A DNA stretch of 64,000 bases from Myxococcota bacterium. Lineage in GTDB: Bacteria; Myxococcota_A; UBA796; UBA2385. The stretch is taken from NCBI GenBank assembly GCA_044344255.1, contig JBIJDH010000014.1:1-64000 (forward strand). Direction: 5' to 3'. A model generated the notes under the pieces. The model had not been told where the DNA came from. It did no database searches and worked only from the letters and a program-made list of their open reading frames with translations. Positions 50,055 through 64,000 of the stretch are shown here, one piece after another. Numbering within the stretch: position 1 is the stretch's first letter; each line of letters opens with the position of its first letter. A program made the translations under genes and the position numbers.

Positions 50055-50901
50055 ACTTGAACCCCAGGACAACCTCGAAGTCGTCGTCCGGACTGCTGAG
50101 CGTGGGGATCTCACTCGCCACCCAGTCCCCACCGCCGATGTGCTCGGAGGCGTGGTTCAGGATGTCATCGAAGTTGGTGCCCCGGTCGTAAATCTCGTCG
50201 TAATAGCTGTGTGTTTGGCCGTTCTCGCCGATCACACAGCTATCGAAGCCGAAGGAGGTGTCCGGGGAGTCCATCCAGCCCCACACCACCATGCCCTCTT
50301 GGAAGAAGGTGTGGAGGATGTCGACCTCGGCCTCGTAGAAGTCGCCCTTGTCCTTGAAGTCGAGCTCACCCTCCTTGATGAAGTCGACCTCATGGTCGGT
50401 CGAGTACACCTGCTGCTCGTAGCAGCGCTCCCGGTACTCGTCCGCACCCACGGCGACGCCCTCGTCGTTGAGGATCGGGGTGTGCAGCGTGTTGGCGTAA
50501 AAGTCGAGCACGTCCTCAAAGGACTTGTATCGACCCGTGACCAGCTGACAGCGGATCGCCTCGTAGCAGCCCCAGTCGAAGCGCCCGACCGACGTACCGC
50601 CGTAGGGATAGGTGTCGCCCTCGCGGTCCTCGACGACCGGCCCCGTCTCCGGGTAGGCGTAGGTGTGAGCGCCCTCCTGGATGCCCGGGAATACCCCCAA
50701 GTACACCGGCCCAAGGGCCCGCATGTCGCCGGAGACGTTCTCCGCCAGGCTGGTCTCAGGGTTCAGGAAGGCGAGGTCAAGCGCCTCCTTCGGGATCTTC
50801 ACGGTGCCGTGAATGTCCTTGTGGTCGATGACCTCCTCGTACTTGCAGCCGAAGGCCGCAGACAGCAGGGCACCGAAGAGCACGCTTCGGGGGGCGCTCA
50901 T
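50041..50901 (-). CDS. acidic lipoprotein
   Basis: MSAPRS..AFGC lipobox; overlaps both neighbours. Confidence 0.8.
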   Translation of the reverse strand: MSAPRSVLFGALLSAAFGCKYEEVIDHKDIHGTVKIPKEALDLAFLNPETSLAENVSGDMRALGPVYLGVFPGIQEGAHTYAYPETGPVVEDREGDTYPYGGTSVGRFDWGCYEAIRCQLVTGRYKSFEDVLDFYANTLHTPILNDEGVAVGADEYRERCYEQQVYSTDHEVDFIKEGELDFKDKGDFYEAEVDILHTFFQEGMVVWGWMDSPDTSFGFDSCVIGENGQTHSYYDEIYDRGTNFDDILNHASEHIGGGDWVASEIPTLSSPDDDFEVVLGFKYEGE

Positions 50902-53642
50902 AGCCTGTACTCCAGACCGACCTGCAGGGTGATGGGCGACTGACGGGCGTAGGCCCACCGGTTCCGTCCGAAGACCCCCGCAGCTTCGTAGCGCTGGTTG
51001 TTGGTGACGTTGAAGAGGTTGACCACCCCCGACATCTTGCCCTTCTTCACCGGGATCTCCTGAGCCACTCGGATGTCGAGCTTCCAGGCACCTTCGGTGC
51101 GGGCGTAGGAGCCGCGGGTCCACTTGGCGTACCCGAGGGAGGTGAGGCCCTCCTGGTTCGCGTTCTCGTAGAAGCGGCTCACCGGGTAGCCGCTCTCGTA
51201 GCTGATCACACTGCCGACCTGGGTGGTCCAGGGGTCGGTGGGGAGGTCGTAGGTGATGCCGCCCGTCACGTCGTGTCGGATGTCCGTCGTGAGGTAGCCG
51301 TTCTCCCAGTACTCCACCTGCGGGGCGACGCTGAGGAAGTAGCTCGGGCCTTCCTGCACCGAGCCCCGGCTCACCGTGTAGGAGTAGGTGATGTCCATCT
51401 CCCAGTTGTCGGAGCGGACCTTCTGCAGCTCGAGATCGGTGCGGAAGTAGTCGCGGCGGGCGATGCTCGGCGAGCGGAGCCGGGAGTAGCTGAGGGCGTC
51501 CCCGTTGGCGTAGCCGAGGGTGTTGTAGCCGTCCTCGTCCCAGAGCACGTTCGTCTCATCGAAGACGTAGATGTTCCGGGTGAACTTCCCGTTGAAGTAA
51601 GCCTTGATCGCGAGGTCCTTGATGATCTGGCGCTCGGCGCCGAGCAGGAAGGCATCTACATGAGGCGCGGTCAGGTTGTCGAGCACCGTCGTCCGGTTGA
51701 TCGCGGAGTCGTAGCCCGCCGAGCCGTCGAAGCCGTTCAGCGACGGGTAGGCGATGCCCTGGCTACCGAAGTACTGCCCATAGTAGACCTTGGAGCCGAA
51801 GGAGGAGCCGGCCTGCGAGAGGTCGTCGGCGACGGCGAGGTTGCTCGTGTCGTTGAACCGGCCCACCGAGCCCGTCAACTTGGACTTGCCGTCGCTCCAG
51901 GGGTCCCACGAGGTCGTGAAGCGGGGGCCGAGGAGCCCGGCGGAGAGGACCTCTTCCCCGACGTCGTTGGTGAGGGACTGCTGGTCGTAGCGGAGACCGT
52001 AGCGGAAGGTCAGGTTGCTGATCGGCTTGTAGACATCCTGGATGAACAGGCCGAGGGTGTCGCCGGTCAGCTCGTGGAAGTGCGCGCCCGAGACCTCGAA
52101 CCAGTAGTAGGCCTGGGTCGAGTTGGGGTCAAAGTAGGTGCGGTTGACGTCCACGAACTGGAGGTTCCCGGAGAAGCCCACCGCGCGGTTCGTCGAGGTG
52201 CGGTAGAGGTCGGCGCCGATCTTGAGGTCGTGTGTGCCCCAGCCGGGGACCTGGAGGAGGCTGAAGCGGGTCTGCACGCCCATGCGCCAACGATCGTCGA
52301 TCGAGAAGGCGGTCGAGTTACCGTTCGAGTACGCGCCGTTGGCGCCCACGCGGGCGGGGGTGAGGAAGTCCACCGTGTTCTCGAGCTCGTCGGGATCACA
52401 GGGGTTGTAGCCGACCTCCTGATCGTGGGTGCAACCGACCTGGTGGTTCTCGAGGAAGCTCTTCTGGAGGATGGTCTTCGTCTCGAGGAAGGCGCGATCG
52501 GAGATGAACCAGTCCCACTGGAAGGAGCCGAGCCATCCGCCCTGAGCCTGCCGGGACTGCGCCTCGGGCTTGTAGAAGCGGGAGTCCTGGTTCAGGTTGT
52601 CGATCGTCGTGGGGTCGGTCTGGGTGAGCACCGTGAAGCGGTGGGCGGCGACCGGCTGGACCGTCAGCTTACCGAGGAGGTAATGCGCGTCGTAGTCCTG
52701 GGGGAGCGGGTTCCCGCCCACCCGGTACAGCTGGTGCGTGTACTGGTAGGAGGTGAGCAGCCAGGCCTTGTCACGGATCACCGGACCCGACACCGAGAGG
52801 CCAGCCTCGTAAGTCTCGTACTGGCTGTCGAAGTCCGTGGCGACGAGCTGGCTGCCATCCTTCGTGAAGATGGCGTCCTTCTTGGGAGACCAGTTGCCGT
52901 TGGTGACGTAGACGCCGGTGATGATCTTGAGGGTGTTGGTGCCGGAGCTGGTGACGATGTTGATGCCACCGCCGACGTCCGTGCCGTACTCAGGGTCAAA
53001 CTGGCTGATCAGCACCTCGATCTGCTCGATGGCGTCGAAGTTGAAGTTCAGCGAGAAGGTGCCGGTGACGGGGTCGGTGATGTTCACCCCGTCGAGCATG
53101 TAGGTGTTCTCGTTCGAGGCCGAGCCGCCCATGTTGGGGTTCGAGCCGCCGGTGACGCCGGCCGAGAGCTGCACGGCCGCCTGGTAGGAGCGGCCGGTGG
53201 GGATGCGCTCCAGGAACTCCTTCGTCAACACGGTGGTCTGGCCGCCGGACTCGGTGTCAATCACCTTCCGCTCGGCCTCGATGACCATCTCCTCCTGCGC
53301 CACCGAGGCGACCATGTTCACGGTCACCGCGGAGGTACGGCCGATGTTCACGAGGACATCGGTGAGGTTGATCGTCTTGTAGCCCTTGAACTCGGCCTTG
53401 ACGGTGTAGCGGCCAGGCGGCAGCTCGGCGAAGAGGAAGCGACCTTCCCCGTCGGAGTCCTGCTGCTTGACGCCCATCAAGTTGGCGGAGCTGATGGAGA
53501 CGAGCACGCCGGGCATGCCGATCCCCTGCTCATCCACCACATCGCCTTTGATGGAGCCGGTGGTGACGGAGGCGACTGCGATGCCCGGCACGGCAAGCAG
53601 GAGCAGGAGCAGACGCAGCAGGAAGAGGGGGATGCGGGGCAT
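50898..53642 (-). CDS. Oar-like TonB-dependent receptor with carboxypeptidase-regulatory-like N-domain
   Basis: TGSIKG.VVD..G..MPGV.V; LPPGRY; RIPTGRSYQ; ENTYMLDGVNITDP; C-terminal QVGLEYRL. Confidence 0.93.
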   Translation of the reverse strand: MPRIPLFLLRLLLLLLAVPGIAVASVTTGSIKGDVVDEQGIGMPGVLVSISSANLMGVKQQDSDGEGRFLFAELPPGRYTVKAEFKGYKTINLTDVLVNIGRTSAVTVNMVASVAQEEMVIEAERKVIDTESGGQTTVLTKEFLERIPTGRSYQAAVQLSAGVTGGSNPNMGGSASNENTYMLDGVNITDPVTGTFSLNFNFDAIEQIEVLISQFDPEYGTDVGGGINIVTSSGTNTLKIITGVYVTNGNWSPKKDAIFTKDGSQLVATDFDSQYETYEAGLSVSGPVIRDKAWLLTSYQYTHQLYRVGGNPLPQDYDAHYLLGKLTVQPVAAHRFTVLTQTDPTTIDNLNQDSRFYKPEAQSRQAQGGWLGSFQWDWFISDRAFLETKTILQKSFLENHQVGCTHDQEVGYNPCDPDELENTVDFLTPARVGANGAYSNGNSTAFSIDDRWRMGVQTRFSLLQVPGWGTHDLKIGADLYRTSTNRAVGFSGNLQFVDVNRTYFDPNSTQAYYWFEVSGAHFHELTGDTLGLFIQDVYKPISNLTFRYGLRYDQQSLTNDVGEEVLSAGLLGPRFTTSWDPWSDGKSKLTGSVGRFNDTSNLAVADDLSQAGSSFGSKVYYGQYFGSQGIAYPSLNGFDGSAGYDSAINRTTVLDNLTAPHVDAFLLGAERQIIKDLAIKAYFNGKFTRNIYVFDETNVLWDEDGYNTLGYANGDALSYSRLRSPSIARRDYFRTDLELQKVRSDNWEMDITYSYTVSRGSVQEGPSYFLSVAPQVEYWENGYLTTDIRHDVTGGITYDLPTDPWTTQVGSVISYESGYPVSRFYENANQEGLTSLGYAKWTRGSYARTEGAWKLDIRVAQEIPVKKGKMSGVVNLFNVTNNQRYEAAGVFGRNRWAYARQSPITLQVGLEYRL

Positions 53643-53910
53643 CAGGCTGTTCCTTGGATGCGGAGCCTGTGGGGCACTGACCGCGGGATGGGCCAGAAAT
53701 ATGCCGGGCTCGGTACGGTTTTGGGGGCCTGGAAGACGACGGTCAACCAGCTCCCGGACTCCGCGCCTGCACCGGCCCAGGCACAAGAGTGCCCGCGGCG
53801 GCAGAACATGGCATGGTTAGGCGGGCAGCGTCCGAAAGTCAAGGCACCGGGACAAAGTTGGCAGAGGAGGTCGGCGGAGACGTCATTCTTGCGCAGCGAG
53901 GCGGCCGGGC

Positions 53911-53940: not shown

Positions 53941-54151
53941 GGTCCGTCGTGTGAGGGCTGGTGACCTCGGTCAGGGCCTTCTGCGGTCTGACAGTGTCTG
54001 ACTCCAGGCTCTGATCCGGCACTTTTCGATAGACGCCATTTTTTAGTCTCACCGGCGGGAGCTCGTCTCCCCCGATCCCTGATGCTTCCCGCACCCTTCG
54101 CCATCGGTGGGCTTGACCCATCGGACCACGGGCGCCTTCGGAGGACGAGCG

Positions 54152-54718
54152 ATGTTCAACAGGACGCTCTTCACGGTGTTGCTCGGGCTCGCCTTCACAG
54201 GCAGCTTCGAGACCGCCGAGGCCACCAGCTTCCGCAAGATGTCCCACGAGGAGGTCGTCGAGGCCTCTGATCTCATCCTGCGCGGCACGGTGATGGAGAT
54301 CTGGACCGAGACCAGCCCCTCCGGTGTCACCTGGACCCGCGTGCAGGTCGAGGTGGAGCACCTCTACAAGGGCGAGCTCAGCTCAGACGTGGTGATCATC
54401 GATCAGATGGGCGGCACGATGGGCGGCTTGACCACCCGGGTCGAGGGCGCGGCGCGCTTCAGCCCCGACGAAGAGGTCCTGCTCTTCCTCGACGTCAACA
54501 AGGCCGGCTACATCCAGCCGATCGGCATGATGAACGGCAAGTACACCATCATGCTGGATCCCCACACGCGGACCGAGGTGCTTCAGCGCTTCGCCCCGTC
54601 CCTCAGCCAGCCCTACGATCACCGCTTCATCCCTCTCCCCAATGAAGCCCACCGGAACACGCTGTCCGAGATGGAGGCCATCATCGCTGGCCCCCGCCCG
54701 ACCGCGGGAGGCAAGTAG
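54152..54718 (+). CDS. secreted protein, propeptide-like partner of matrixin
   Basis: Signal peptide; ATSF..MS.EE.VE.SDLILRGTV..WT.V.V.V...YKG..GG..G..RF...EEVLLFL. Confidence 0.75.
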   Translation: MFNRTLFTVLLGLAFTGSFETAEATSFRKMSHEEVVEASDLILRGTVMEIWTETSPSGVTWTRVQVEVEHLYKGELSSDVVIIDQMGGTMGGLTTRVEGAARFSPDEEVLLFLDVNKAGYIQPIGMMNGKYTIMLDPHTRTEVLQRFAPSLSQPYDHRFIPLPNEAHRNTLSEMEAIIAGPRPTAGGK

Positions 54719-54721
54719 TCC

Positions 54722-56125
54722 ATGACTGGGATGATCCTCCTCCTCTCTCTCGGCATCCAGGACGCCTCGGCCTGGGCCCACACCACTCGGGTGTGGAACC
54801 GCGAGGACATCGGGCCTCTCACCTGGTTCCTCAGCACGCGCGAAGACGAGACCATCGAGTACTCGGCCGTCGGCGGGGAGCTTGACCGCTCCTTCCAGAA
54901 CTGGGTGGAGGCCGCGCCCTGCGCCGCCCTCTCCACCGAGTACAAGGGCGAGAAGCCCATGGAAGAGAACTGGAAGCTCGACGGCCGCGTCTTCATGGTG
55001 TTGGACGACCCCAACGAAGAAGACTGGGTCGACCGGGGCAGCCCCGGCTTCAACCCGGGTATGGACACGGGCGTGCTCGCGGCCACCGTGTGCTTCCCCA
55101 CCACCTACGCCCGCACCTTCCAGGGCGAGAACTACTACTACACCGAAGACTGCGACATCGCCTTCAACTCCGAGATCGACTGGACGACGCGCCAGGAGTT
55201 TGACGACGGCCTGTGCAACGGCGGCACGGTGATGGAGTCGGTGGCCACGCACGAGATCGGGCACCTCTGGGGCCTCGGGCACTCCTGCAATGATCCGCAG
55301 GACAACGACCCCCGCAAGGGCCCCGACGCCTGTGACGATGAGCTCAAGGCCGCGACGATGTTTTGGCAAGGTGGGCCCTGTTCCCTCGAGCAGGCCACCA
55401 TCGAAGCCGACGACATCGAGGGGCTCTATGCCCTCTACGGCCCTTATTGCGAGTTCACCACCACCGAGGCCGAGGGCCGGGTGGCCGGCGGCGCGCCCTT
55501 CGAGGTCTGCTTCGACTACGAGTGCAGCGAGGACCCTTCGGGCTTCGTCTGGGAGTTCGGCGACGGCGAGACCTCCTCCGAAGGCAGCCCCTGCCACACC
55601 TACACGGAGAAGGGGCAGTACTCGGTCGTCTTCACCGCCAGCGGCGGCGGCGACGCAGACTCCGCTTGCCCCACCTGGAGCGCCCCTCACCGCGAGGCCT
55701 CTTACGTGCTCGTGTGCGGGCAGCCCGAGCCCGCCGAGGGCTTCACCGGGCTCTTCACCTACGAGAACGACGTCGGCAACACCCTGCAGTTCGTGAACCA
55801 GACCGACACCACGGTCTACGGCTGCGTGGACTCCGTAGAGTGGGACGTCTACGAGGGCGGCGGCAAGATCCAGGAGGGCGACGAGCCCGTCCAGCGCATC
55901 GACGCCTGGTCCCCGAAGATTGACTTCGGCAAGGCCGGCACCTACCGCGTCGTCCTCAACGTCGGCGGCCCCGGCGGTGAGAGCGCGGGTGAGCTGGTGG
56001 TGAACGTCGGCGACTACCAGGGCGGCTCCTGCAGCACCACCCCGAACGGCGCCAGCCGCACCGGCCTCTACGGGATGCTGGTCGGCCTCGCGGCGATGGC
56101 CTGGCGGCGTCGCAGCCGGGCTTGA
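54722..56125 (+). CDS. matrixin (M10-like) metalloprotease with PKD domain and MYXO-CTERM-like tail
   Basis: HEIGHLWGLGHS, Met-turn ATM, DDIEGL.ALY, WEFGDG PKD, GGSCS...WRRR. Confidence 0.9.
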   Translation: MTGMILLLSLGIQDASAWAHTTRVWNREDIGPLTWFLSTREDETIEYSAVGGELDRSFQNWVEAAPCAALSTEYKGEKPMEENWKLDGRVFMVLDDPNEEDWVDRGSPGFNPGMDTGVLAATVCFPTTYARTFQGENYYYTEDCDIAFNSEIDWTTRQEFDDGLCNGGTVMESVATHEIGHLWGLGHSCNDPQDNDPRKGPDACDDELKAATMFWQGGPCSLEQATIEADDIEGLYALYGPYCEFTTTEAEGRVAGGAPFEVCFDYECSEDPSGFVWEFGDGETSSEGSPCHTYTEKGQYSVVFTASGGGDADSACPTWSAPHREASYVLVCGQPEPAEGFTGLFTYENDVGNTLQFVNQTDTTVYGCVDSVEWDVYEGGGKIQEGDEPVQRIDAWSPKIDFGKAGTYRVVLNVGGPGGESAGELVVNVGDYQGGSCSTTPNGASRTGLYGMLVGLAAMAWRRRSRA

Positions 56126-58710
56126 ACACCCGGGAGCTCCAGCGAACGACCGCGACCCTCCTGGGGGTCGCGGTTGTTTTTTGGGCGGTCTGGGGGGAGG
56201 CGGCGCGCGCGCTGTCCTTGCCGCTCGACCGCCTCTCCGCGATCACGGAGGTGGAGCTCCAGGCGGCCGCCGCGCTGGAGAGCGGTCCCATCCCGATCTC
56301 GGCGCTCTGGCGCCTCTACAGCACCGTGCTCGGCGTGCGGACCTGGCAGGTGCCCCTCCCGGTGCGGCCGCGGGCCCTCTTCTACTACAAGCCCCCGGAG
56401 GACATGGCGCTGCTCTACCGGAGCGCGGAGGGGAAGCCCTGGACCGCGGCGACCAGCCTCAAGCACTCGCCGGAGCTCCCGGGCTGGTCGGTGAACAAGT
56501 CCTGGACCTTCACGAGCCGGTCTCTTCAGGTGCGTCGCCGGGCCGAGCAGGGGCCCCCCGCCGCCTGGGAGTACGCCGTGCGCTACGGTCGCGCGACCGA
56601 TCGGGAGGGCGCTCTCCGACCGACCGAGGCCGATGTTCGCGATCCGGACTTTGTCCTGCGCTCGGCCCAGGTGGATGACACGACCCGGCACGGGCTCTAC
56701 CTCCCCGCCCCCGGCCTCGCCCGCTTCGACCTCCAGGTGCCCGAGGGGGCCGTGCTCGAGCTCGACAGCACGCTGCTGCCCCCCGAGGCCGCCGACCCGG
56801 CCACCGCCTCGGACGGGGCCACGCTCGTCGTCGAGCTCCGAAAGGGGGACACCACCGTGGAGCTCGCCCGGCGCGCCCCGCAGGTCCGCCGCACGGATCG
56901 CCTGCGCCTCGACCTCGCCGCCTGGGGTGGGCAGGACGTGTCGATCACGCTCCGCAGTGAGGGCGGCGAGGACACCGACTACGACTACCTCTTCGTCGCC
57001 GACCCGATCATCCGCCAGCCCGAGGCCGACCCCCAGCGGGTGGTGATCCTCTTCATTGACACGCTGCGCGCCGACCACCTCTCCCTCTACGGCTACGATC
57101 GGCCCACGTCGCCCAACATCGACGCCTGGGCGGCCGGGGGTACCGCCTTTACGAACGCCCGCTCCGTCGCGCCCTGGACGCTCCCCAGCAGCCGGACCAT
57201 GCTCACGGGCGTTCAGCCGGAGTCTTGGGGGCTGCTCCCGACCTTACAGGAGCGCTTCCGAGAGGCGGGATGGGCCACCGGCTTCTTCGCCGGAAATGTC
57301 TACCTCTCGAGCAACTTCGAGATGGCAGACGGCTGGGGCACGCAGCGCTGCGTGAACTGGCCGGGCGCGGAGGTCGAGGTCAGCCGAGCCCGACGCTTCC
57401 TCCGCGACTACCCCGATCGCTCGGCCTTTGTCGTCGTCCACTTCATGGACATGCACCTCCCCTACCGGGAGCCCCTGTCCTACCGGCGGCGCTTCGCCGG
57501 GGAGCGACCGCCGGCCCTCGCCGCCGACAACTTCCAGCGCACCGACGTCGTCCGCGCCGAGAAGAAGATGGGGCCCGCCGGGAAGGAGTACGTCATGGGC
57601 CGCTACGACAACAGCCTGGCCTACCTCGACGACAGCCTCAGCGGCTTCCTCCGCGAGCTCGGTGAGGACACCACCGTCGTGCTGCTCTCCGATCACGGCG
57701 AGGAGTTCTGGGACCACGGCGGCTTCGAGCACGGCCACACCCTCTACGACGAGCTGCTGCGCATCCCCCTCGTGTTGCGCGGCCCCGGCATCCCGACCGG
57801 CACCTCCGACACGCCCGTGAGCCTGCTCGACGTCGCCCCGACGCTCGCCAAGGCCGCCGGGCTCAGCACCGAGGGGATGACCGGGATCCCCCTCCAAGAC
57901 CTGCTCAACATCAAGGGTTCCGCAGAGATATCCAATAGGCCCCTGTCTTTTGGTAGACCGTTGTACGGGGAACGTCGCTGGGGCGTGATCGACGACGGCA
58001 AGAAGTACACGACCACCGAGGGGGAGCAGGCGCTCTTCGACCTCCGCGCCGATCCCCAGGAGCAGAAGGACATCGCCGCCGACCTCGAAGACCCCACCCC
58101 CTGGGCCCGCCGGATGAGCCAGGGCCTCGGGCGACCGGTCGGGCTCGGCCTCCGCCTCGTCGCAGGCGACGGACGGTTGAAGGGGGATGTGGTCGCCGAG
58201 CTCGACACGCCCGGCGGCTGGGCCGCAGCGGTGGTCGGTGACGATCCGCTGAACGCCAGCGCAGGCGCCGCGGTCATCGAGGGCACCATCGCCCGGCTCA
58301 CCTGGAAGGGTGGCCACAACGACGTCCGCGAGCTCTACGCCGTGCCTGCGCGCCCGATGGCAGAGGCCCTGCCCGAGCTCGTCATCCGGATGATCGGCGG
58401 GGAGACACCGATGGAGCTCAGCCGCGCCTGGTCGGGAGACACCCTCCCGACGATGGACAAGTTCGGCAGCCCCCTCTTCGAGGGTCGGTTCAAGAACCGC
58501 TCCATGAAGGTGACCTGGGCGCTCGTCCCCATCCCGCCCGAGCGGGGCCGGGCCCTCTCCGGGATGGACGGGGAGATGGAGGACGCGCTCAAGGCCCTCG
58601 GGTACATGGACGATCATCCGTCGGACCACGTGGATAAGACCGACAAGTCCGACAAGTCCGTGCCGGCGCCGCGGGGGCCGGCAGGCGTGGCCCCGCCTCC
58701 GGTGCGTTGA
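56122..58710 (+). CDS. sulfatase/alkaline-phosphatase-superfamily protein
   Basis: IDTLRADHL, TSPNID, WTLPS, DMHLPY, SDHGEEF..H...HG.TLY.E. Confidence 0.88.
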   Translation: MNTRELQRTTATLLGVAVVFWAVWGEAARALSLPLDRLSAITEVELQAAAALESGPIPISALWRLYSTVLGVRTWQVPLPVRPRALFYYKPPEDMALLYRSAEGKPWTAATSLKHSPELPGWSVNKSWTFTSRSLQVRRRAEQGPPAAWEYAVRYGRATDREGALRPTEADVRDPDFVLRSAQVDDTTRHGLYLPAPGLARFDLQVPEGAVLELDSTLLPPEAADPATASDGATLVVELRKGDTTVELARRAPQVRRTDRLRLDLAAWGGQDVSITLRSEGGEDTDYDYLFVADPIIRQPEADPQRVVILFIDTLRADHLSLYGYDRPTSPNIDAWAAGGTAFTNARSVAPWTLPSSRTMLTGVQPESWGLLPTLQERFREAGWATGFFAGNVYLSSNFEMADGWGTQRCVNWPGAEVEVSRARRFLRDYPDRSAFVVVHFMDMHLPYREPLSYRRRFAGERPPALAADNFQRTDVVRAEKKMGPAGKEYVMGRYDNSLAYLDDSLSGFLRELGEDTTVVLLSDHGEEFWDHGGFEHGHTLYDELLRIPLVLRGPGIPTGTSDTPVSLLDVAPTLAKAAGLSTEGMTGIPLQDLLNIKGSAEISNRPLSFGRPLYGERRWGVIDDGKKYTTTEGEQALFDLRADPQEQKDIAADLEDPTPWARRMSQGLGRPVGLGLRLVAGDGRLKGDVVAELDTPGGWAAAVVGDDPLNASAGAAVIEGTIARLTWKGGHNDVRELYAVPARPMAEALPELVIRMIGGETPMELSRAWSGDTLPTMDKFGSPLFEGRFKNRSMKVTWALVPIPPERGRALSGMDGEMEDALKALGYMDDHPSDHVDKTDKSDKSVPAPRGPAGVAPPPVR

Positions 58711-58736
58711 CAGGCCCCACACCGGGGCGGTACACT
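58707..58736 (+). promoter_or_regulatory. sigma70 promoter of the metal uptake operon
   Basis: TTGACA-N18-TACACT, 6 nt before GTG 58743. Confidence 0.75.
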
Positions 58737-58742
58737 GCGACC

Positions 58743-59171
58743 GTGCGATCGGCCTGCCCCCTCCCCCGCCTCCTCCGCCTGAGCCGGCTGCGGCATCGGC
58801 GAGCGCCGCTGGTGACGCTGGTCGTGACGGCCTGCTTGTGGCTCATCGGCCTCAGCGCCCAGGTGTGGCATCAGGCCGCCGTCGAGCACGTCATCTGCCC
58901 GGCACACGGTGAGGTCGTCGAGATCGGCGAGTACACCGAGCACGACCACGCAGACGAGGCCGGCTGGCGCGCCGCGGCGCTCGACGCCGGAGATCATGCC
59001 GACGACTGCACCCTCTCTGGTGCCTCACCGCTGCTCGGCGGCCTGAGGGGGCCGACGCTGGTCCTGTGCCCGTCGTTCGAGGCCCCCCTGCCGGCCGTCT
59101 CTGCGCTCGCCCCTCCCCGCGCGCCGCCGATCGGGTACGCGCCCAAGACCTCGCCGCCCCGCTCGAGCTGA
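58743..59171 (+). CDS. His/Cys-rich leader protein (DUF2946/CutF/CruR-like) with RAPP and APKTSPP motifs
   Basis: Hydrophobic N-segment, HVICPAH, HDH, DH..DC, PPRAPP..APKTSPP near the stop. Confidence 0.7.
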   Translation: MRSACPLPRLLRLSRLRHRRAPLVTLVVTACLWLIGLSAQVWHQAAVEHVICPAHGEVVEIGEYTEHDHADEAGWRAAALDAGDHADDCTLSGASPLLGGLRGPTLVLCPSFEAPLPAVSALAPPRAPPIGYAPKTSPPRSS

Positions 59172-59240
59172 AGCCCAGTCCCGCCGCGCCCCCCACCGGG
59201 GGGCACGGTCTATCCTTGGTCTCTGTCTCGAGGTTTCCCC

Positions 59241-60377
59241 ATGTTCCTCCTCTTCATCGGGGGGCTCCTGGGCGTGGGCTCCGCCCTCGCGCAGGAGGGC
59301 GGCATGCCCTCCGCTGGCGCCGCGCCCCAGTCCATGAACCCCGACATCGCGCTCATCGCCGACGTCGCCGCGGCGTGGTTCTCCGCCGACGAGCCCATGC
59401 AAGGCGGCGGGCATGACCCGACCGCCAACGGCTTCAACCTTCAGCAGCTCGAGCTGTCGGTCGGCAAGCCGGTTGACCCCTTCTTCCGCTTCGACGCCAA
59501 CATCGTCTTCAGCCTCTATGGCGTGGAGATCGAGGAGGTCTACGCGACGACGCTGGGGCTCCCGGCCCGCACCCAGCTCCGGGCGGGGCAGCTCCTCACC
59601 CGCTTTGGGCGAGGTAACCCCACCCATCCGCACGCCTGGGACTTCGCAGACCAGCCCTTCCCGATCGGGCGAGTCTTCGGCGGAGAGGGCAACCGCGGCC
59701 TCGGGGTCGAGGGCTCGATCCTGGTGCCCACGCCCTGGTTCGCCGAGCTCATCGTCTCCGAGACCGGCGCCGCCGGCGAATCGACGGCGCGCAGCTTCTA
59801 CGGCGCGGACGACCAAGGCGTGGAGACCCCCGCCGACCTGCAGAGCACGGTGGCCCTCAAGCAGTTCTTCCCGATCGGGGATGACCTGTCGCTCAACTGG
59901 GGCCTCTCCTTCGCAGGCGGGCCCAACCCGAGCGGGCGCGGCAACCGCTCGGAGGTCTACGGCTCCGACCTGTACCTGAAGTACCGGCCGATCTCCCGGG
60001 GGGCCTCCACCTACGCCTCGCTGACGAGCGAGTGGTTCCTCCGCCGCCGTCAGCTCCCCGGAGACGTGCTGCAAGACCTCTCCGGCTACACCCAGCTCGC
60101 CTGGAAGTTCAGCCAGCGGTGGGGGCTCTCCGCGCGACACGAGATCGGCCTGCCCGCCACCGGCGAGGACGGCGAGATCGCGGCCGACAACCTCGATCCG
60201 GAGTGGACCGACACCCGCCAGCGGGTGAGCGCCGCCACCACCTTCTGGCCCTCTGAGTTCTCGCGGGTCCGCCTCCAGGGTTCGGCCAACATGCCAGGTT
60301 GGATGCCCGTTCCAGAGTACGCCGCCTTCCTCACTTTCGAGTTCGCCGTGGGTGCCCACGGCGCGCACGCCTTCTAG
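59241..60377 (+). CDS. outer-membrane metal receptor/porin (zinc-regulated receptor type)
   Basis: MNPDIALI.D, GGHDP, ELSVG..VDPFF, FGRGNPTHPHAWDF, PSEFSRVRLQ, C-terminal GAHGAHAF. Confidence 0.85.
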   Translation: MFLLFIGGLLGVGSALAQEGGMPSAGAAPQSMNPDIALIADVAAAWFSADEPMQGGGHDPTANGFNLQQLELSVGKPVDPFFRFDANIVFSLYGVEIEEVYATTLGLPARTQLRAGQLLTRFGRGNPTHPHAWDFADQPFPIGRVFGGEGNRGLGVEGSILVPTPWFAELIVSETGAAGESTARSFYGADDQGVETPADLQSTVALKQFFPIGDDLSLNWGLSFAGGPNPSGRGNRSEVYGSDLYLKYRPISRGASTYASLTSEWFLRRRQLPGDVLQDLSGYTQLAWKFSQRWGLSARHEIGLPATGEDGEIAADNLDPEWTDTRQRVSAATTFWPSEFSRVRLQGSANMPGWMPVPEYAAFLTFEFAVGAHGAHAF

Positions 60378-60389
60378 TTCGGAGCGCCC

Positions 60390-61301
60390 ATGCGTCCTGC
60401 TCTGCTCTCCTTCTTTTTGCTCCTCGCCGGCCTCGTCCTCCCCCGATCGGCCTACGCCACGCTCAAGGTGGTCACCACGACCTCGGACCTCGCGGCCATC
60501 GCCCAGGAGGTCGGTCAGGACCGGATCAAGGTCACGGCCCTGGCCCTCGCCAGCCAGGACCCCCACTTCGTCGACGCTCGACCGAACCTCGCCCTGCAGC
60601 TCTCGAAGGCGGACCTGCTGCTCGTGGTCGGCCTCGACCTCGAGATCGGGTGGCTCCCGGTGCTCCAGTCCGGCTCGCGCAACCCCGCGATCCAGAAGGG
60701 CAGCAAGGGCTACCTCGACTGCTCGACGCTCGTGCGGCTCCTCGAGGTGCCCACCACCCAGATCGACCGTTCGATGGGCGACATTCACCCCGGCGGCAAC
60801 CCGCACTACCTCTATGACCCCCGCAACGCGGTCTCCCTCTCCCTCGGCCTCGCTCGAAAGTTCGGTGAGCTCGACCCCAACAACGCGGCCGCCTACACCG
60901 CCGCGGCGCAAGACTTCATCCGCCGCCTCGGCGAAGCGCGCACCGGCTGGGAGGCCGCGCTCGCCCCCCTCAAAGGCGCGCCCACCGTGGGCTTCCACAA
61001 GTCGTTCCCCTACCTCGCCGACTGGGTCGGCCTCGACATGATCGAGCACATCGAGCCGAAGCCAGGGATCCCGCCCGCGCCCTCCCATGTCGCCCATGTG
61101 CTCGACGTGATGAGGCAGCGCAACGTGAAGCTGATCATCCAGGAGGCCTACTACGGCGACCCCACCGGCAAGGACCTCGGCGGTCGCACCGGCGCGCACC
61201 TCGCCCTCATCCCGGGGGGCACCGACTTCGCCGGGGGCGAGACCTTCATCCAGCACACGCAGAAGGTGGTCGACACCCTGCTGAAGGGAGGCAAACCATG
61301 A
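60390..61301 (+). CDS. metal ABC transporter substrate-binding protein (ZnuA/TroA family)
   Basis: VVTT, QDPHF, ADLL..VGLDLE.GWL, GNPHYLYDP, FH..F.YL, EPKPGIPP. Confidence 0.92.
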   Translation: MRPALLSFFLLLAGLVLPRSAYATLKVVTTTSDLAAIAQEVGQDRIKVTALALASQDPHFVDARPNLALQLSKADLLLVVGLDLEIGWLPVLQSGSRNPAIQKGSKGYLDCSTLVRLLEVPTTQIDRSMGDIHPGGNPHYLYDPRNAVSLSLGLARKFGELDPNNAAAYTAAAQDFIRRLGEARTGWEAALAPLKGAPTVGFHKSFPYLADWVGLDMIEHIEPKPGIPPAPSHVAHVLDVMRQRNVKLIIQEAYYGDPTGKDLGGRTGAHLALIPGGTDFAGGETFIQHTQKVVDTLLKGGKP

Positions 61302-62128
61302 GGATCGCCCCACCTCTCGCCCTGGCGCTGCTGCTCGGCGCCTGCACCTTCAGCCCCGGACAGGGCTGGGGGACCCTTGAAGAAGCAACCTTCGAGGCGG
61401 CGCTCCGCCCCGGCGAGGCCCGGGACCTCGGCGACGGAGCCTTCCTGGTCCTCCCCGGCTACACCTTCACCGTCGAGGCGGCCACGGCCACCTTCGGCCC
61501 GCTCGAGCTCCTGGAGCTCCAGGGTGGGGGCGGAGGCGGGGGAGCCTTCGACCCCGCGGACCCTCCGGAGGGCTACGGCCTCTGCCATGGCGGGCACTGC
61601 CACGCCGACGACGGCGGCCTCGTGTCCTACGCCGAGATCGAGGCCGAGCTGGCCGGCGGGAGCGCCGCCTTCGTCCCGGTGGTCAGCCTCCCGCTCGAGG
61701 GCGACTTTGACCTCGGCGCACCGGCGCCCCGCGCCCTCGACGCGGGCGATCCCACAGCGGAGCTCGACGCGGCCGACATCGGCCTCATCCGCGTGTCGAT
61801 CGAGCGCCTGCAGATCCGCGGCGCCTTCAGCGGCGGCCCGACCGACGCCGAGCTCAGCGCCCCAGTCGCCGTGACGATCGACCTCACGACGCCCGGCGAC
61901 CTCTCCGCGGGCGTCGAGCTGCCGATCGGCCGGGGTGAGGACCCGCGGATCTCTCTCGCGGCCTCGCTCGAGATCGACGGCACCCTCCTCGACGGCCTCG
62001 ACCCTGCGACCCTCGCCGTCGACGATGCGCTCGTCATCGACGACGCGGACGCACCCGGCGCCACGCTCCTCTTGGAGAACCTCTCCCTCAACGCGCTGCA
62101 GGTCGACATCACCCGCGCCCGAGACTGA
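61298..62128 (+). CDS. acidic lipoprotein with CHGGHCH motif
   Basis: LGAC lipobox; FDPADPPEGYGLCHGGHCHADDG. Confidence 0.8.
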   Translation: MRIAPPLALALLLGACTFSPGQGWGTLEEATFEAALRPGEARDLGDGAFLVLPGYTFTVEAATATFGPLELLELQGGGGGGGAFDPADPPEGYGLCHGGHCHADDGGLVSYAEIEAELAGGSAAFVPVVSLPLEGDFDLGAPAPRALDAGDPTAELDAADIGLIRVSIERLQIRGAFSGGPTDAELSAPVAVTIDLTTPGDLSAGVELPIGRGEDPRISLAASLEIDGTLLDGLDPATLAVDDALVIDDADAPGATLLLENLSLNALQVDITRARD

Positions 62129-62195
62129 GCCCCCTCCTCCCCCCTCCTCTCCTCTGCCCCTACCCGCCCGCTGTTGGGCGCCCTCGGTGAAGTTC

Positions 62196-62705
62196 ATGCT
62201 CCGCCCCCCGACCACCACCCATCCCCTCCTCCTCCCCCTCTTCCCCCTCCTCGCCCTCCTCGCCGCCTGCGCCGACAAGGGCGACTCCGGCGCCGAGGTC
62301 GAGGACCCTCTGTCGCACGCCTGCGAGTACACCGCCGAGCTGGGCAGCGCCGTGACGGCCGGCGCCGACCGCGCCTCCGCCCCCGCCTTCCCGCTCGGAG
62401 AGGAGCCCGCCACGGTCACCCTGGTCCCCGGCGCCACCGGGTACCTCAAGGTCGAGGTCACCGGCGACACCGCGGCGCTGCTCTTCGCGGGCACCGCCGA
62501 TGTCGTGAACGGCCTCTCTCAGGGCGACTCCGCCGCCACCCTCCCCACCGGCGCCCCCAACGAGCGCTGCGCCGACGACATCCCCGAGCACTTCGACCTC
62601 GACTTTCATGAGGCCGGCGACTGGTACATCGAGGTCGGTCCGGCCGCCATCGAGAGCGTCTGGCTGATGCTGACCTCCGCCGAAGGACACACACACGATG
62701 AGTGA
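62196..62705 (+). CDS. lipoprotein with Cys pair and C-terminal HTH(DE) His motif
   Basis: LAAC lipobox; HAC, C..IPEH, ends GHTHDE; overlaps the ATPase start. Confidence 0.75.
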   Translation: MLRPPTTTHPLLLPLFPLLALLAACADKGDSGAEVEDPLSHACEYTAELGSAVTAGADRASAPAFPLGEEPATVTLVPGATGYLKVEVTGDTAALLFAGTADVVNGLSQGDSAATLPTGAPNERCADDIPEHFDLDFHEAGDWYIEVGPAAIESVWLMLTSAEGHTHDE

Positions 62706-63576
62706 CTCACCCATCCAGGGCGCCCTCCTCCGCTGTGAGGGCCTGCTCGTGGGCTACGGCGGCAAGGCCCTGCTCCCTGCGGTCGACCTCGAGATCGCGT
62801 CAGGGGAGTTCTGGTCCGTGATCGGGCGGAACGGCTCGGGAAAGTCGACCTGGTTCCGCACGCTGCTCGGGCTCATCCCGCCGGTGGGCGGTCAAGTCGT
62901 CTGGCCGAACGGCAAGGTCAAGCTCACCTACGTGGCGCAGCGCATCCGCTTCGACGACCTCATCCCCGTGAGCGTCGAGCAGGTGGTGGCCATGGGCCTC
63001 GAGCGCGGCTGGTCCTTCCTCGGTCCTCGACCGAAGATGACCGAGAAGGTGGCCGACGCCCTCGAGGCCGTCAAGGCCGACCACCTCGCCGACCGCACCT
63101 TCCGTTCGCTCTCCGAGGGGCAGAAGCAGCGGGTGCTCCTCGCGCGCATGGTCGCCTCCGGGGCGCAGGTGGCCCTGCTCGACGAGCCCACCGCGGCGAT
63201 GGACGCCGTCGCGGAGCACGAGGCGATGACGCTGCTCTCCGAGCTACGGGCCCGCTACAACATGGCGGTGATCGTAGTCAGCCACCACCTCGAAGAGGCC
63301 CTGGAGCACGCCGATCGCGTGGTCTTCTTCGATCCCGACGCGGGGGTGGTGATCAATGACACGCCGCGGGGCCTGCAAGCGAGGCCCGAGTTCCTCGCCC
63401 GCTACGGCGCACACCTGAACGAGGTTCAAGGGCAGGTCCACCACGGAGAGGTCGGCGGCGGCGCCTCGCACCCTTCGACGCGCTCCCACGGTCACGGCCA
63501 CGGCCACGGTAACAGTCACGGCCACGGCCACGGCCACGGTCCGGGGAAGGGCCCCGGGGAGACGGAGCCCTCATGA
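62698..63576 (+). CDS. metal ABC transporter ATPase (ZnuC-like) with His-Gly tail
   Basis: GRNGSGKST, LSEGQKQRVLLAR, LLDEPT, VSHH; (HG)n tail. Confidence 0.93.
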   Translation: MSDSPIQGALLRCEGLLVGYGGKALLPAVDLEIASGEFWSVIGRNGSGKSTWFRTLLGLIPPVGGQVVWPNGKVKLTYVAQRIRFDDLIPVSVEQVVAMGLERGWSFLGPRPKMTEKVADALEAVKADHLADRTFRSLSEGQKQRVLLARMVASGAQVALLDEPTAAMDAVAEHEAMTLLSELRARYNMAVIVVSHHLEEALEHADRVVFFDPDAGVVINDTPRGLQARPEFLARYGAHLNEVQGQVHHGEVGGGASHPSTRSHGHGHGHGNSHGHGHGHGPGKGPGETEPS

Positions 63577-64000
63577 CGCCAACCCCCACTTGGGAAGACT
63601 TCGTCGGCGCCTTCGACCTCTTCCGCGACCCCATCCTCTGCGGCGTCGCGGCCGGAGCGGTGCTCGGCTACCTCGGCATCTTCATCGTGCTCCGGCGCAT
63701 GGTCTTCGTGGCGGCGACGCTGACGCAGGCCGCAGGCCTGGGGGTAGCCTTGTCGTTCTACTGCGGCATCCATCTCGGGCTGAGCGTGAACCCGATCGTG
63801 GGAGCGATGGCGCTCTGCCTCGCCACCTCGGGCCTGCTGAGCCTGCGGCCGGAGCGTCTGCATCAGTCCCGCGACGCGATCCTCGCCCTGGCTTGGCTGA
63901 TCGCCGGCAGCGCCACGATCCTCGTGGGCGACCGGATCACGCAGGAGGCGCACGACATCGCGGGCATCCTCTTCGGCTCGGGCGTGCTCGTGCGGCCGAT
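63573..64000 (+). CDS. metal ABC transporter permease (ZnuB-like), runs off the window end
   Basis: LG.FIVLRRMVFV.ATL.Q.A.LG; ILFG. Confidence 0.88.
   Translation, partial: MTPTPTWEDFVGAFDLFRDPILCGVAAGAVLGYLGIFIVLRRMVFVAATLTQAAGLGVALSFYCGIHLGLSVNPIVGAMALCLATSGLLSLRPERLHQSRDAILALAWLIAGSATILVGDRITQEAHDIAGILFGSGVLVRP

Follow-up and report, generated by a model that had tools for sequence, protein, structure and literature searches.

Which signal controls the metal-uptake operon near the end of this stretch of DNA, and how is that signal read? The window analysed here, 64,000 nucleotides (nt) from a Myxococcota bacterium (contig JBIJDH010000014.1; genome of 8.18 Mb, 71% GC), carries on its plus strand a leader gene of 142 amino acids (aa) at 58743..59171 (GTG 58743 to TGA 59171), followed by genes for a porin-like barrel, a ZnuA-type binding protein and an ATP-binding cassette (ABC) importer; the leader and operon features described below all lie on this strand. 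An initial annotation had taken the leader for a metal-sensing ribosome-arrest peptide that uses a RAPP motif. Our analysis points, with moderate confidence, to another arrest site: a membrane-anchored leader with His and Cys ligands would sense zinc while still on the ribosome, and its stall on the motif APKTSPP is predicted to open the ribosome-binding site (RBS) of the porin gene.

A homologue search with the leader sequence alone returned just two near-identical proteins, and the family surfaced via the downstream gene and via profiles. A 13-sequence profile retrieved 3,575 clusters at E ≤ 0.001, the best 150 of which supply the motif counts below, and a 125-sequence profile has a match in 114 of 301 genomes of the phylum; no second member was found in the rest of the source genome. 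We regard the leader open reading frame (ORF) as real, because its homologues form a family. The candidate arrest motif APKTSPP (59139..59159) is kept family-wide: P134, K135, P138 and P139 are invariant among 125 aligned sequences, 148 of the 150 best relatives have an APKx[SAPE]PP tail, and 1-5 more residues follow the motif in 140 of these 148. HxxCxxH, the other motif whose conservation in homologous leaders the initial annotation had proposed to check, likewise occurs in 148/150, and the longer HxxxxxHxxCxxH in 139/150. Leaders ending in APKx[SGP]PP were found at 11 of 16 inspected myxobacteria-like barrel loci, and the cultured genera Archangium, Hyalangium and Melittangium carry the single-motif form. 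Tail variants without the Lys (SPGLSPP, SPGHSPP, SPINSPP, APSHSPP) occur at loci L167, L174, L186, L188, L191, L192, L197, L200, L202, L209, L216 and L321.

The ligand residues fall into two clusters. The first, H43-x5-H49-x2-C52-x2-H55 (58869..58907), has H49 and C52 invariant and H43 and H55 kept in at least 90% of the 125 sequences, and the second, H85-x3-C89 (58995..59009), has C89 invariant and H85 kept in at least 90%. Of the clusters listed in the initial annotation, HVICPAH (H49-C52-H55) and DHADDC (H85-C89) are conserved, whereas HDH (H67/H69) is not kept across the 125 aligned relatives and was ruled out as a conserved ligand. CxxC is found in 3/150 best relatives and in 6 of 134 leader loci (138 loci minus three duplicates and one partial hit); the window leader has HxxC instead, at the same distance from the tail.

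This Cys-to-tail distance is fixed although the intervening sequence is unconserved. In 131 of 146 best relatives the last Pro follows the second Cys at 52-54 residues; the distance is 49-51 in all measurable RxPP leaders of the window's own order (8/8), and 50 in the window leader (C89). The spacing is 53 in RAPP-type leaders heading the same barrel, and 49-52 in CruR of Bordetella pertussis, where it was shown to matter (PMC9426467). From C89 to the end of RAPP, by comparison, the window leader has 40 residues. Because the spacing of 50 fits and that of 40 does not, we conclude that APKTSPP holds the place of CruR's RAPP.

What, then, is the RAPP of the window leader (residues 126-129, 59118..59129), which lies 10 residues ahead of the last Pro? 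It is not the motif of the leader family, as R[AGS]PP occurs within 21 residues before the tail in just 4/148 best relatives and the conserved, correctly spaced site is APKTSPP. Its presence alone is not evidence either, because the 71% GC source genome, read in six frames, contains RAPP 6,998 times. We found R[AG]PP 10-11 residues before the last Pro in 9/25 leaders of the window's order, compared with 2/109 outside it. A pattern search returned 27 leaders in 70 loci, 7 of them repeats; six of the 20 new leaders have R[AG]PP at exactly 10 residues and one has it at 14. Combined, the motif is present in 15/45 own-order leaders (13 RGPP, 2 RAPP), with about 0.0005 expected per position by composition. 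The words RAPP and RGPP are depleted in Myxococcota proteomes, with a bias of 0.29 and 0.47 in the supplement of PMC12992588. To judge from these sequences, the window RAPP is not accidental, and R[AG]PP is a lineage-restricted extra of this order, a second arrest-type motif.

The promoter-like element TTGACA-18-TACACT (58707..58736; sigma-70-like, 10/12 matches) is the sole such match in 57500-60000, where 0.1 is expected. The mRNA of the leader is likely leaderless, because its GTG lies only 6 nt beyond the -10 hexamer, and the same-order loci L085, L089, L095, L097, L098 and L100 have a similar -10 with the start 6-10 nt after it. An alternative start, GTG 58812 (119 aa), is the gene callers' choice in the close relatives P0002 and P0003. 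Promoter, 142-codon ORF, motifs, GC hairpin and the next ATG (59241) all lie where the initial annotation had placed them, and its hydrophobic N-segment was borne out as well: residues 23-41 (58809..58865; mean hydropathy 2.07), preceded by 7 Arg/Lys in a basic N-terminus, have the character of an export signal or membrane anchor. The predicted structure (predicted local distance difference test (pLDDT) 71, predicted template modelling score 0.40) has a high-confidence helix at residues 17-46, is ordered as helix and hairpin where the first ligand cluster lies, and has an unstructured second half. A fold search with this model gave no match at E ≤ 0.001, and the Pfam and NCBIfam searches gave none for the leader protein.

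The end of the leader is also predicted to take part in an RNA fold that hides the next RBS. An anti-RBS arm in the tail codons, CTCGAGC (59162..59168), would pair with 59225-59232, and a GC spacer hairpin (59183..59209; core GCCCCCC-ACC-GGGGGGC, 59188-59204) is part of this longer stem and itself leaves the RBS uncovered. As a terminator the GC hairpin was rejected, having no U-tract. A weak local hairpin, CCTTGG/TCGAGG (59214..59233), would cover the GAGG Shine-Dalgarno sequence (59230-59233) even without the leader end. The fold of 59100-59270 is no more stable than that of its shuffles (z -0.55).

Across 103 leader loci (31 of the 134 were left out because the next gene was missing or doubtful, the spacer exceeded 170 nt or there was no motif, and six starts were set by hand), the mean energy needed to open the RBS is 12.85 kcal/mol with the native leader end and 9.34 kcal/mol once the footprint of a stalled ribosome is taken out. 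It is 10.47 kcal/mol with the leader end of another locus and 11.04 kcal/mol after synonymous recoding. The native end exceeds the swapped end in 77/103 loci, and in 40/55 after clustering at 40% identity; the loci are related, so that P values are overstated. The predicted hiding of the RBS thus amounts to about 3.5 kcal/mol in the 103 loci, against 0.14 kcal/mol (41/100) in 100 crudely called ordinary gene pairs of the source genome. Furthermore, the pairing partners of the RBS are densest at -9..+12 from the last Pro codon (the S-P-P codons, the tail and the stop), which is the footprint of a stalled ribosome. Translational control, as the initial annotation had suggested, is probable; the predicted anti-RBS stem is weak in the window itself.

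Which metal would such a leader sense? That it heads a metal-uptake operon was confirmed: it is the first gene before the barrel, the ZnuA-type protein and the ABC importer genes. The leader is always first in the operon. The gene after it encodes a barrel at 83 of the 134 loci, a TonB receptor at 23, an efflux OEP at 5, ZnuA at 4 and TonB/ExbB at 2; at the other 17 it is unassigned or cut. The ZnuA/AztC-type binding protein of the window (60390..61301; PF01297, E 4.6e-42; best PDB matches 2OV1 and 1PQ4) has H59, H139 and H202 aligned with the ligands of cyanobacterial ZnuA, all three of them His. Mn-type binding proteins have Glu at the third ligand position. The NCBIfam scores of the protein for AztC and MntC are close, both below cut-off.

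For 40 barrel genes of the phylum, picked mostly for the lack of a known leader nearby, the DNA upstream was retrieved and gave 39 usable regions (one was too short), 10 with a leader (3 APKxSPP, 7 RAPP/RGPP) and 29 leaderless. A perfect TGCAA-N5-TTGCA precedes 12 of the 29 leaderless barrel genes (8 genera) and none of 92 leader-headed barrel loci (9 newly fetched and the 83 above), a difference with a Fisher P of 4e-9 that is overstated by kinship. This element matches the Zur box ATGCAACnnnGTTGCAT predicted for delta-proteobacteria at Desulfovibrio znuABC (PMC545781), a transcriptional control. Because the perfect box was found on leaderless barrels only, it seems that one zinc-uptake gene is controlled either by the leader or by a Zur-type box. 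The window has no Zur box, in agreement with the initial annotation: the best matches are 7/10 to the delta-type box, and 8/16 to an enterobacterial consensus. Enterobacterial Zur/Fur consensus words are not enriched upstream of leaders. Zinc is favoured over Ni and Co as the metal of the putative sensor, because the binding protein is three-His and ZnuA-like and because the Zur-type box occurs on leaderless barrel copies. The Zn/Ni/Co-type His sensor proposed at the outset is thereby narrowed towards Zn, and its ligand set proves to be mixed His/Cys, not His alone.

Transcriptional metal control probably exists elsewhere in the source genome. A Fur-family regulator lies between a COG0523-like GTPase (GCICC) and a HoxN/HupE-like transporter on contig C18 (597336-601031), with a 9/10 Zur-type box at 598104. 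Two overlapping perfect TGCAA-N5-TTGCA, the only perfect ones of the genome, lie upstream of a large sensor-like gene on contig C43 (122514-122540).

We propose that the anchor would insert in the membrane with the ligands facing out. Without zinc, the ribosome would stall at APKTS-P-P, with the second cluster just beyond the tunnel and translocon; the stalled ribosome would open the stem that is predicted to hide the porin RBS, and the uptake operon would be translated. Zinc bridging the two ligand clusters would fold the chain, the pull would end the stall, and the stem would close again. RAPP, which stands ten residues ahead, would serve this lineage as a secondary pause, separate from the sensor-coupled site. 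With a ribosome paused there the anti-RBS arm would stay free, so that a stall at RAPP might, speculatively, be an off-state pause or an insertion checkpoint. A broader version can be put forward only tentatively: an Arg-independent APKxSPP arrest and a two-part His/Cys zinc site may replace Zur on myxobacterial zinc-uptake operons, with the order-specific RAPP/RGPP making the switch two-staged: off at the first stall, on at the second.

Several observations weigh against this zinc-sensing mechanism. APKTSPP is without the Arg that RAPP arrest requires: this residue is irreplaceable in ApcA, ApdA and ApdP (PMC12992588), and an Arg stands at the key position of the family tail in 1/134 leader loci. 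In the window, RBS access is predicted to improve by only 0.2 kcal/mol in the standard test and by 0.2-2.1 kcal/mol with other folding windows, an effect that is weak because GAGG stays covered by the six-pair local hairpin. When five Myxococcaceae loci are folded to a consensus, the Shine-Dalgarno is not paired and the covariation term is unfavourable. The fold test cannot tell stalling from plain coupling, because any ribosome that reaches the stop opens the stem. The Zur-type box is itself a prediction only, and 7/134 leader loci also have it (1 perfect, 6 at 9/10; no barrel-headed one at 10/10). Finally, five leader loci head efflux genes, where release by zinc would have the wrong sign, and the four of these that were tested have no native-over-swap RBS effect.

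RAPP could instead be the operative arrest site in this lineage, with APKTSPP secondary or vestigial. We consider this unlikely. RAPP and RGPP are proven arrest cores (PMC10987492, PMC12992588), and R[AG]PP turns up in own-order leaders at a constant offset, far above its expectation and despite its depletion in Myxococcota; however, APKTSPP is intact in every R[AG]PP-bearing leader, 29/45 own-order leaders are without the motif, and the 40 residues from the Cys to the end of RAPP contrast with 49-54 in CruR, in the RAPP-type leaders of the same barrel and in the leader family. A ribosome at RAPP would moreover free the anti-RBS arm, making the RBS equally hard or harder to open (6.2-9.8 versus 5.7-9.4 kcal/mol). 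An improbable route is also that of CruR itself, in which the stalled ribosome would shield a C-rich Rho site and zinc release would lead to Rho-dependent termination before the porin gene, although this can operate together with RBS masking. Consistent with it are a Rho homologue in the genome (E 1.4e-128, below the model cut-off), a C/G of 1.4-1.9 across 59041-59258, the weakness of the window RBS stem and a sign that is the same as in CruR; yet the C excess follows Pro/Ser/Ala codons, the spacers of the family are barely C-rich (C 5,363, G 4,854; 74/124), short, with a median of 95 nt, and tightly folded by prediction, and termination by Rho does not need the family-wide RBS pairing.

It seems quite improbable that there is no sensing on the ribosome at all, the leader being a small periplasm-facing metal chaperone and the stem a case of ordinary translational coupling. 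Plain coupling would suffice to open the stem, stalling being predicted, and the modelled helix and hairpin around the first ligand cluster would suit a chaperone. Against this stand an invariant proline tail 1-5 residues from the stop, a Cys-to-tail distance fixed across unconserved sequence, a second half that is unstructured in the model, and an invariable first place in the operon, with a Zur-type box as replacement when the leader is absent. We hold it very unlikely that the leader stalls in response to another metal (Ni, Co, Mn or Cu), or with the CutF sign, in which metal induces the stall. His-rich leaders of the CutF-like kind go with Ni/Co genes (PMC9973294), efflux genes follow the leader at five loci and TonB receptors of unknown cargo at 23, and the AztC and MntC scores do not separate clearly. 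Against another metal stand the third His of the binding protein, as in ZnuA, and the Zur-type box on leaderless barrel copies, and metal-induced expression of an importer would have the wrong sign.

The other genes around the leader are as follows. The initial annotation had called the gene right after the leader (59241..60377, 378 aa) a receptor, but the plug and 22-strand barrel of a TonB-dependent receptor were not found: neither Plug nor TonB_dep_Rec matches at E ≤ 1, Pfam gives no hit and NCBIfam no relevant one, and the ESM Atlas neighbours are porin clusters. We therefore describe it as a plug-less porin-like barrel, an assignment that rests on ESM Atlas, as an alignment-free model reached just pLDDT 28 and no credible solved relative was found. 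After the binding protein come two lipoprotein-like proteins without a Pfam or NCBIfam match, one with a CHGGHCH motif (61298..62128) and one ending in GHTHDE, with an uncertain start (62196..62705); both may be metal chaperones. A ZnuC/AztA-like ABC ATPase with a His-rich tail (62698..63576; best NCBIfam AztA, below cut-off) and a ZnuB/AztB-like permease that runs past the window end (63573..64000; family searches) complete the operon within the window. Low-complexity stretches are a C-rich spacer at 62128-62196 and the His-Gly repeat tail of the ATPase at 63480-63560.

Upstream, the neighbours at 50898-53786, 54107-54718, 54722-56125 and 56122-58710 include a minus-strand gene that resembles a TonB receptor, a gene of metalloprotease type whose product has PKD-like repeats (by eye), and a sulfatase gene that ends at the leader promoter. 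Past the window end, at 64439-69900 of the contig, the uptake operon converges on what, by its motifs, we take to be dnaA, and lies beside genes taken in the same way to be rpmH, rnpA, yidD, yidC and a Jag-like gene, a place presumably adjoining the replication origin region. In the Myxococcaceae loci L002, L003, L005 and L010, a downstream minus-strand gene with an HSMCPHH motif, presumably GTP cyclohydrolase I-like, converges on the uptake operon. The efflux-headed loci are L168, L170, L187, L214 and L218, two of which have APKIGPP, and the sign of control may be reversed there.

How does the leader relate to known families? In a survey of 80 barrel loci, the nearest barrel relatives are myxobacterial, and at many loci of Nitrospirota, anammox planctomycetes and Gammaproteobacteria the leader combines CxxC with RAPP, RGPP or RPPP; RAPP leaders before the same barrel are already present in a published supplement. 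At E ≤ 1, 10 of 25 aligned RAPP-type leaders before the barrel match DUF2946. The initial annotation had expected a DUF2946-like leader of the CruR/CutF kind at the head of a metal-uptake operon; the position and kind of leader hold, whereas the window leader is without CXXC and has no match to PF11162 (DUF2946) at E ≤ 10. Weak PF11162 matches occur in 24/125 leader relatives (best E 0.00067), DUF2946 is the name of one relative in UniRef and the automatic name of a near ESM Atlas cluster, and a comparison of the leader family with RAPP-type leaders gave a probability of 62% that covers the N-terminal membrane segment only. No DUF2946 above cut-off was found in the source genome. We suggest that the family is a distant offshoot of DUF2946/CruR/CutF, a link that is weak but consistent.

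In the literature examined, metal sensing by a nascent peptide is demonstrated for copper only (CruR, CutF). Our literature search, which covered the supplements of PMC9973294, PMC12992588 and the bioRxiv paper cited below at most partly, returned no mention of APKxSPP and, within the same coverage, nothing on a zinc arrest leader or on myxobacterial zinc control. If the mechanism proposed here is true, zinc sensing of this kind, alternating with a Zur-type box on one and the same gene, would mean that bacteria swap a repressor for ribosome control of zinc uptake, and a tail without the irreplaceable Arg would be a new arrest mechanism, invisible to RAPP/RGPP motif searches. As both motifs stand in one peptide at this locus, they can be compared directly in one reporter series.

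Compared with the RAPP/RGPP arrest peptides ApdA, ApdP and the RQH family (PMC10987492; PMC12992588), the tail of the leader has no Arg at the key position and has an invariant Pro-Lys one to two places earlier, and the part of the PMC12992588 supplement that was searched holds no APKxSPP string. CruR (Bp2923; DUF2946/PF11162; PMC9426467) is, like the window leader, an exported upstream ORF of about 140 aa before an outer-membrane uptake gene, and in both a Cys ligand precedes a C-terminal di-proline by about 50 residues. Its stall is on and metal is off, and the same sign would apply here. CruR has CXXC and RAPP, senses Cu and acts via Rho, whereas the window leader has HxxxxxHxxCxxH and HxxC, APKxSPP and Zn-type targets, and masking of the RBS is favoured. 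CutF of Rhodobacter capsulatus is likewise an exported leader with a non-RAPP proline tail, PEPEGPPPRL, and its stalled ribosome opens a stem-loop covering the RBS (PMC9973294; bioRxiv 10.1101/2025.02.05.636593); a counterpart of this stem-loop is predicted across the 103 loci and is weak in the window. The window leader also has the features by which PMC9973294 recognises CutF-like leaders, namely fewer than 150 aa (142), an export signal and a PP (138-139) within the last 15 residues. In CutF-like leaders the stall is induced by metal and linked to EF-P. CutF differs in that it stalls on Cu binding, has CxxxC and a PPP tail, and activates a detoxifying oxidase (PMC9973294), whereas the importer here implies the opposite sign. 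Taken together, the leader would resemble CutF in its output and CruR in its sign, and by the defining motifs it is a member of neither.

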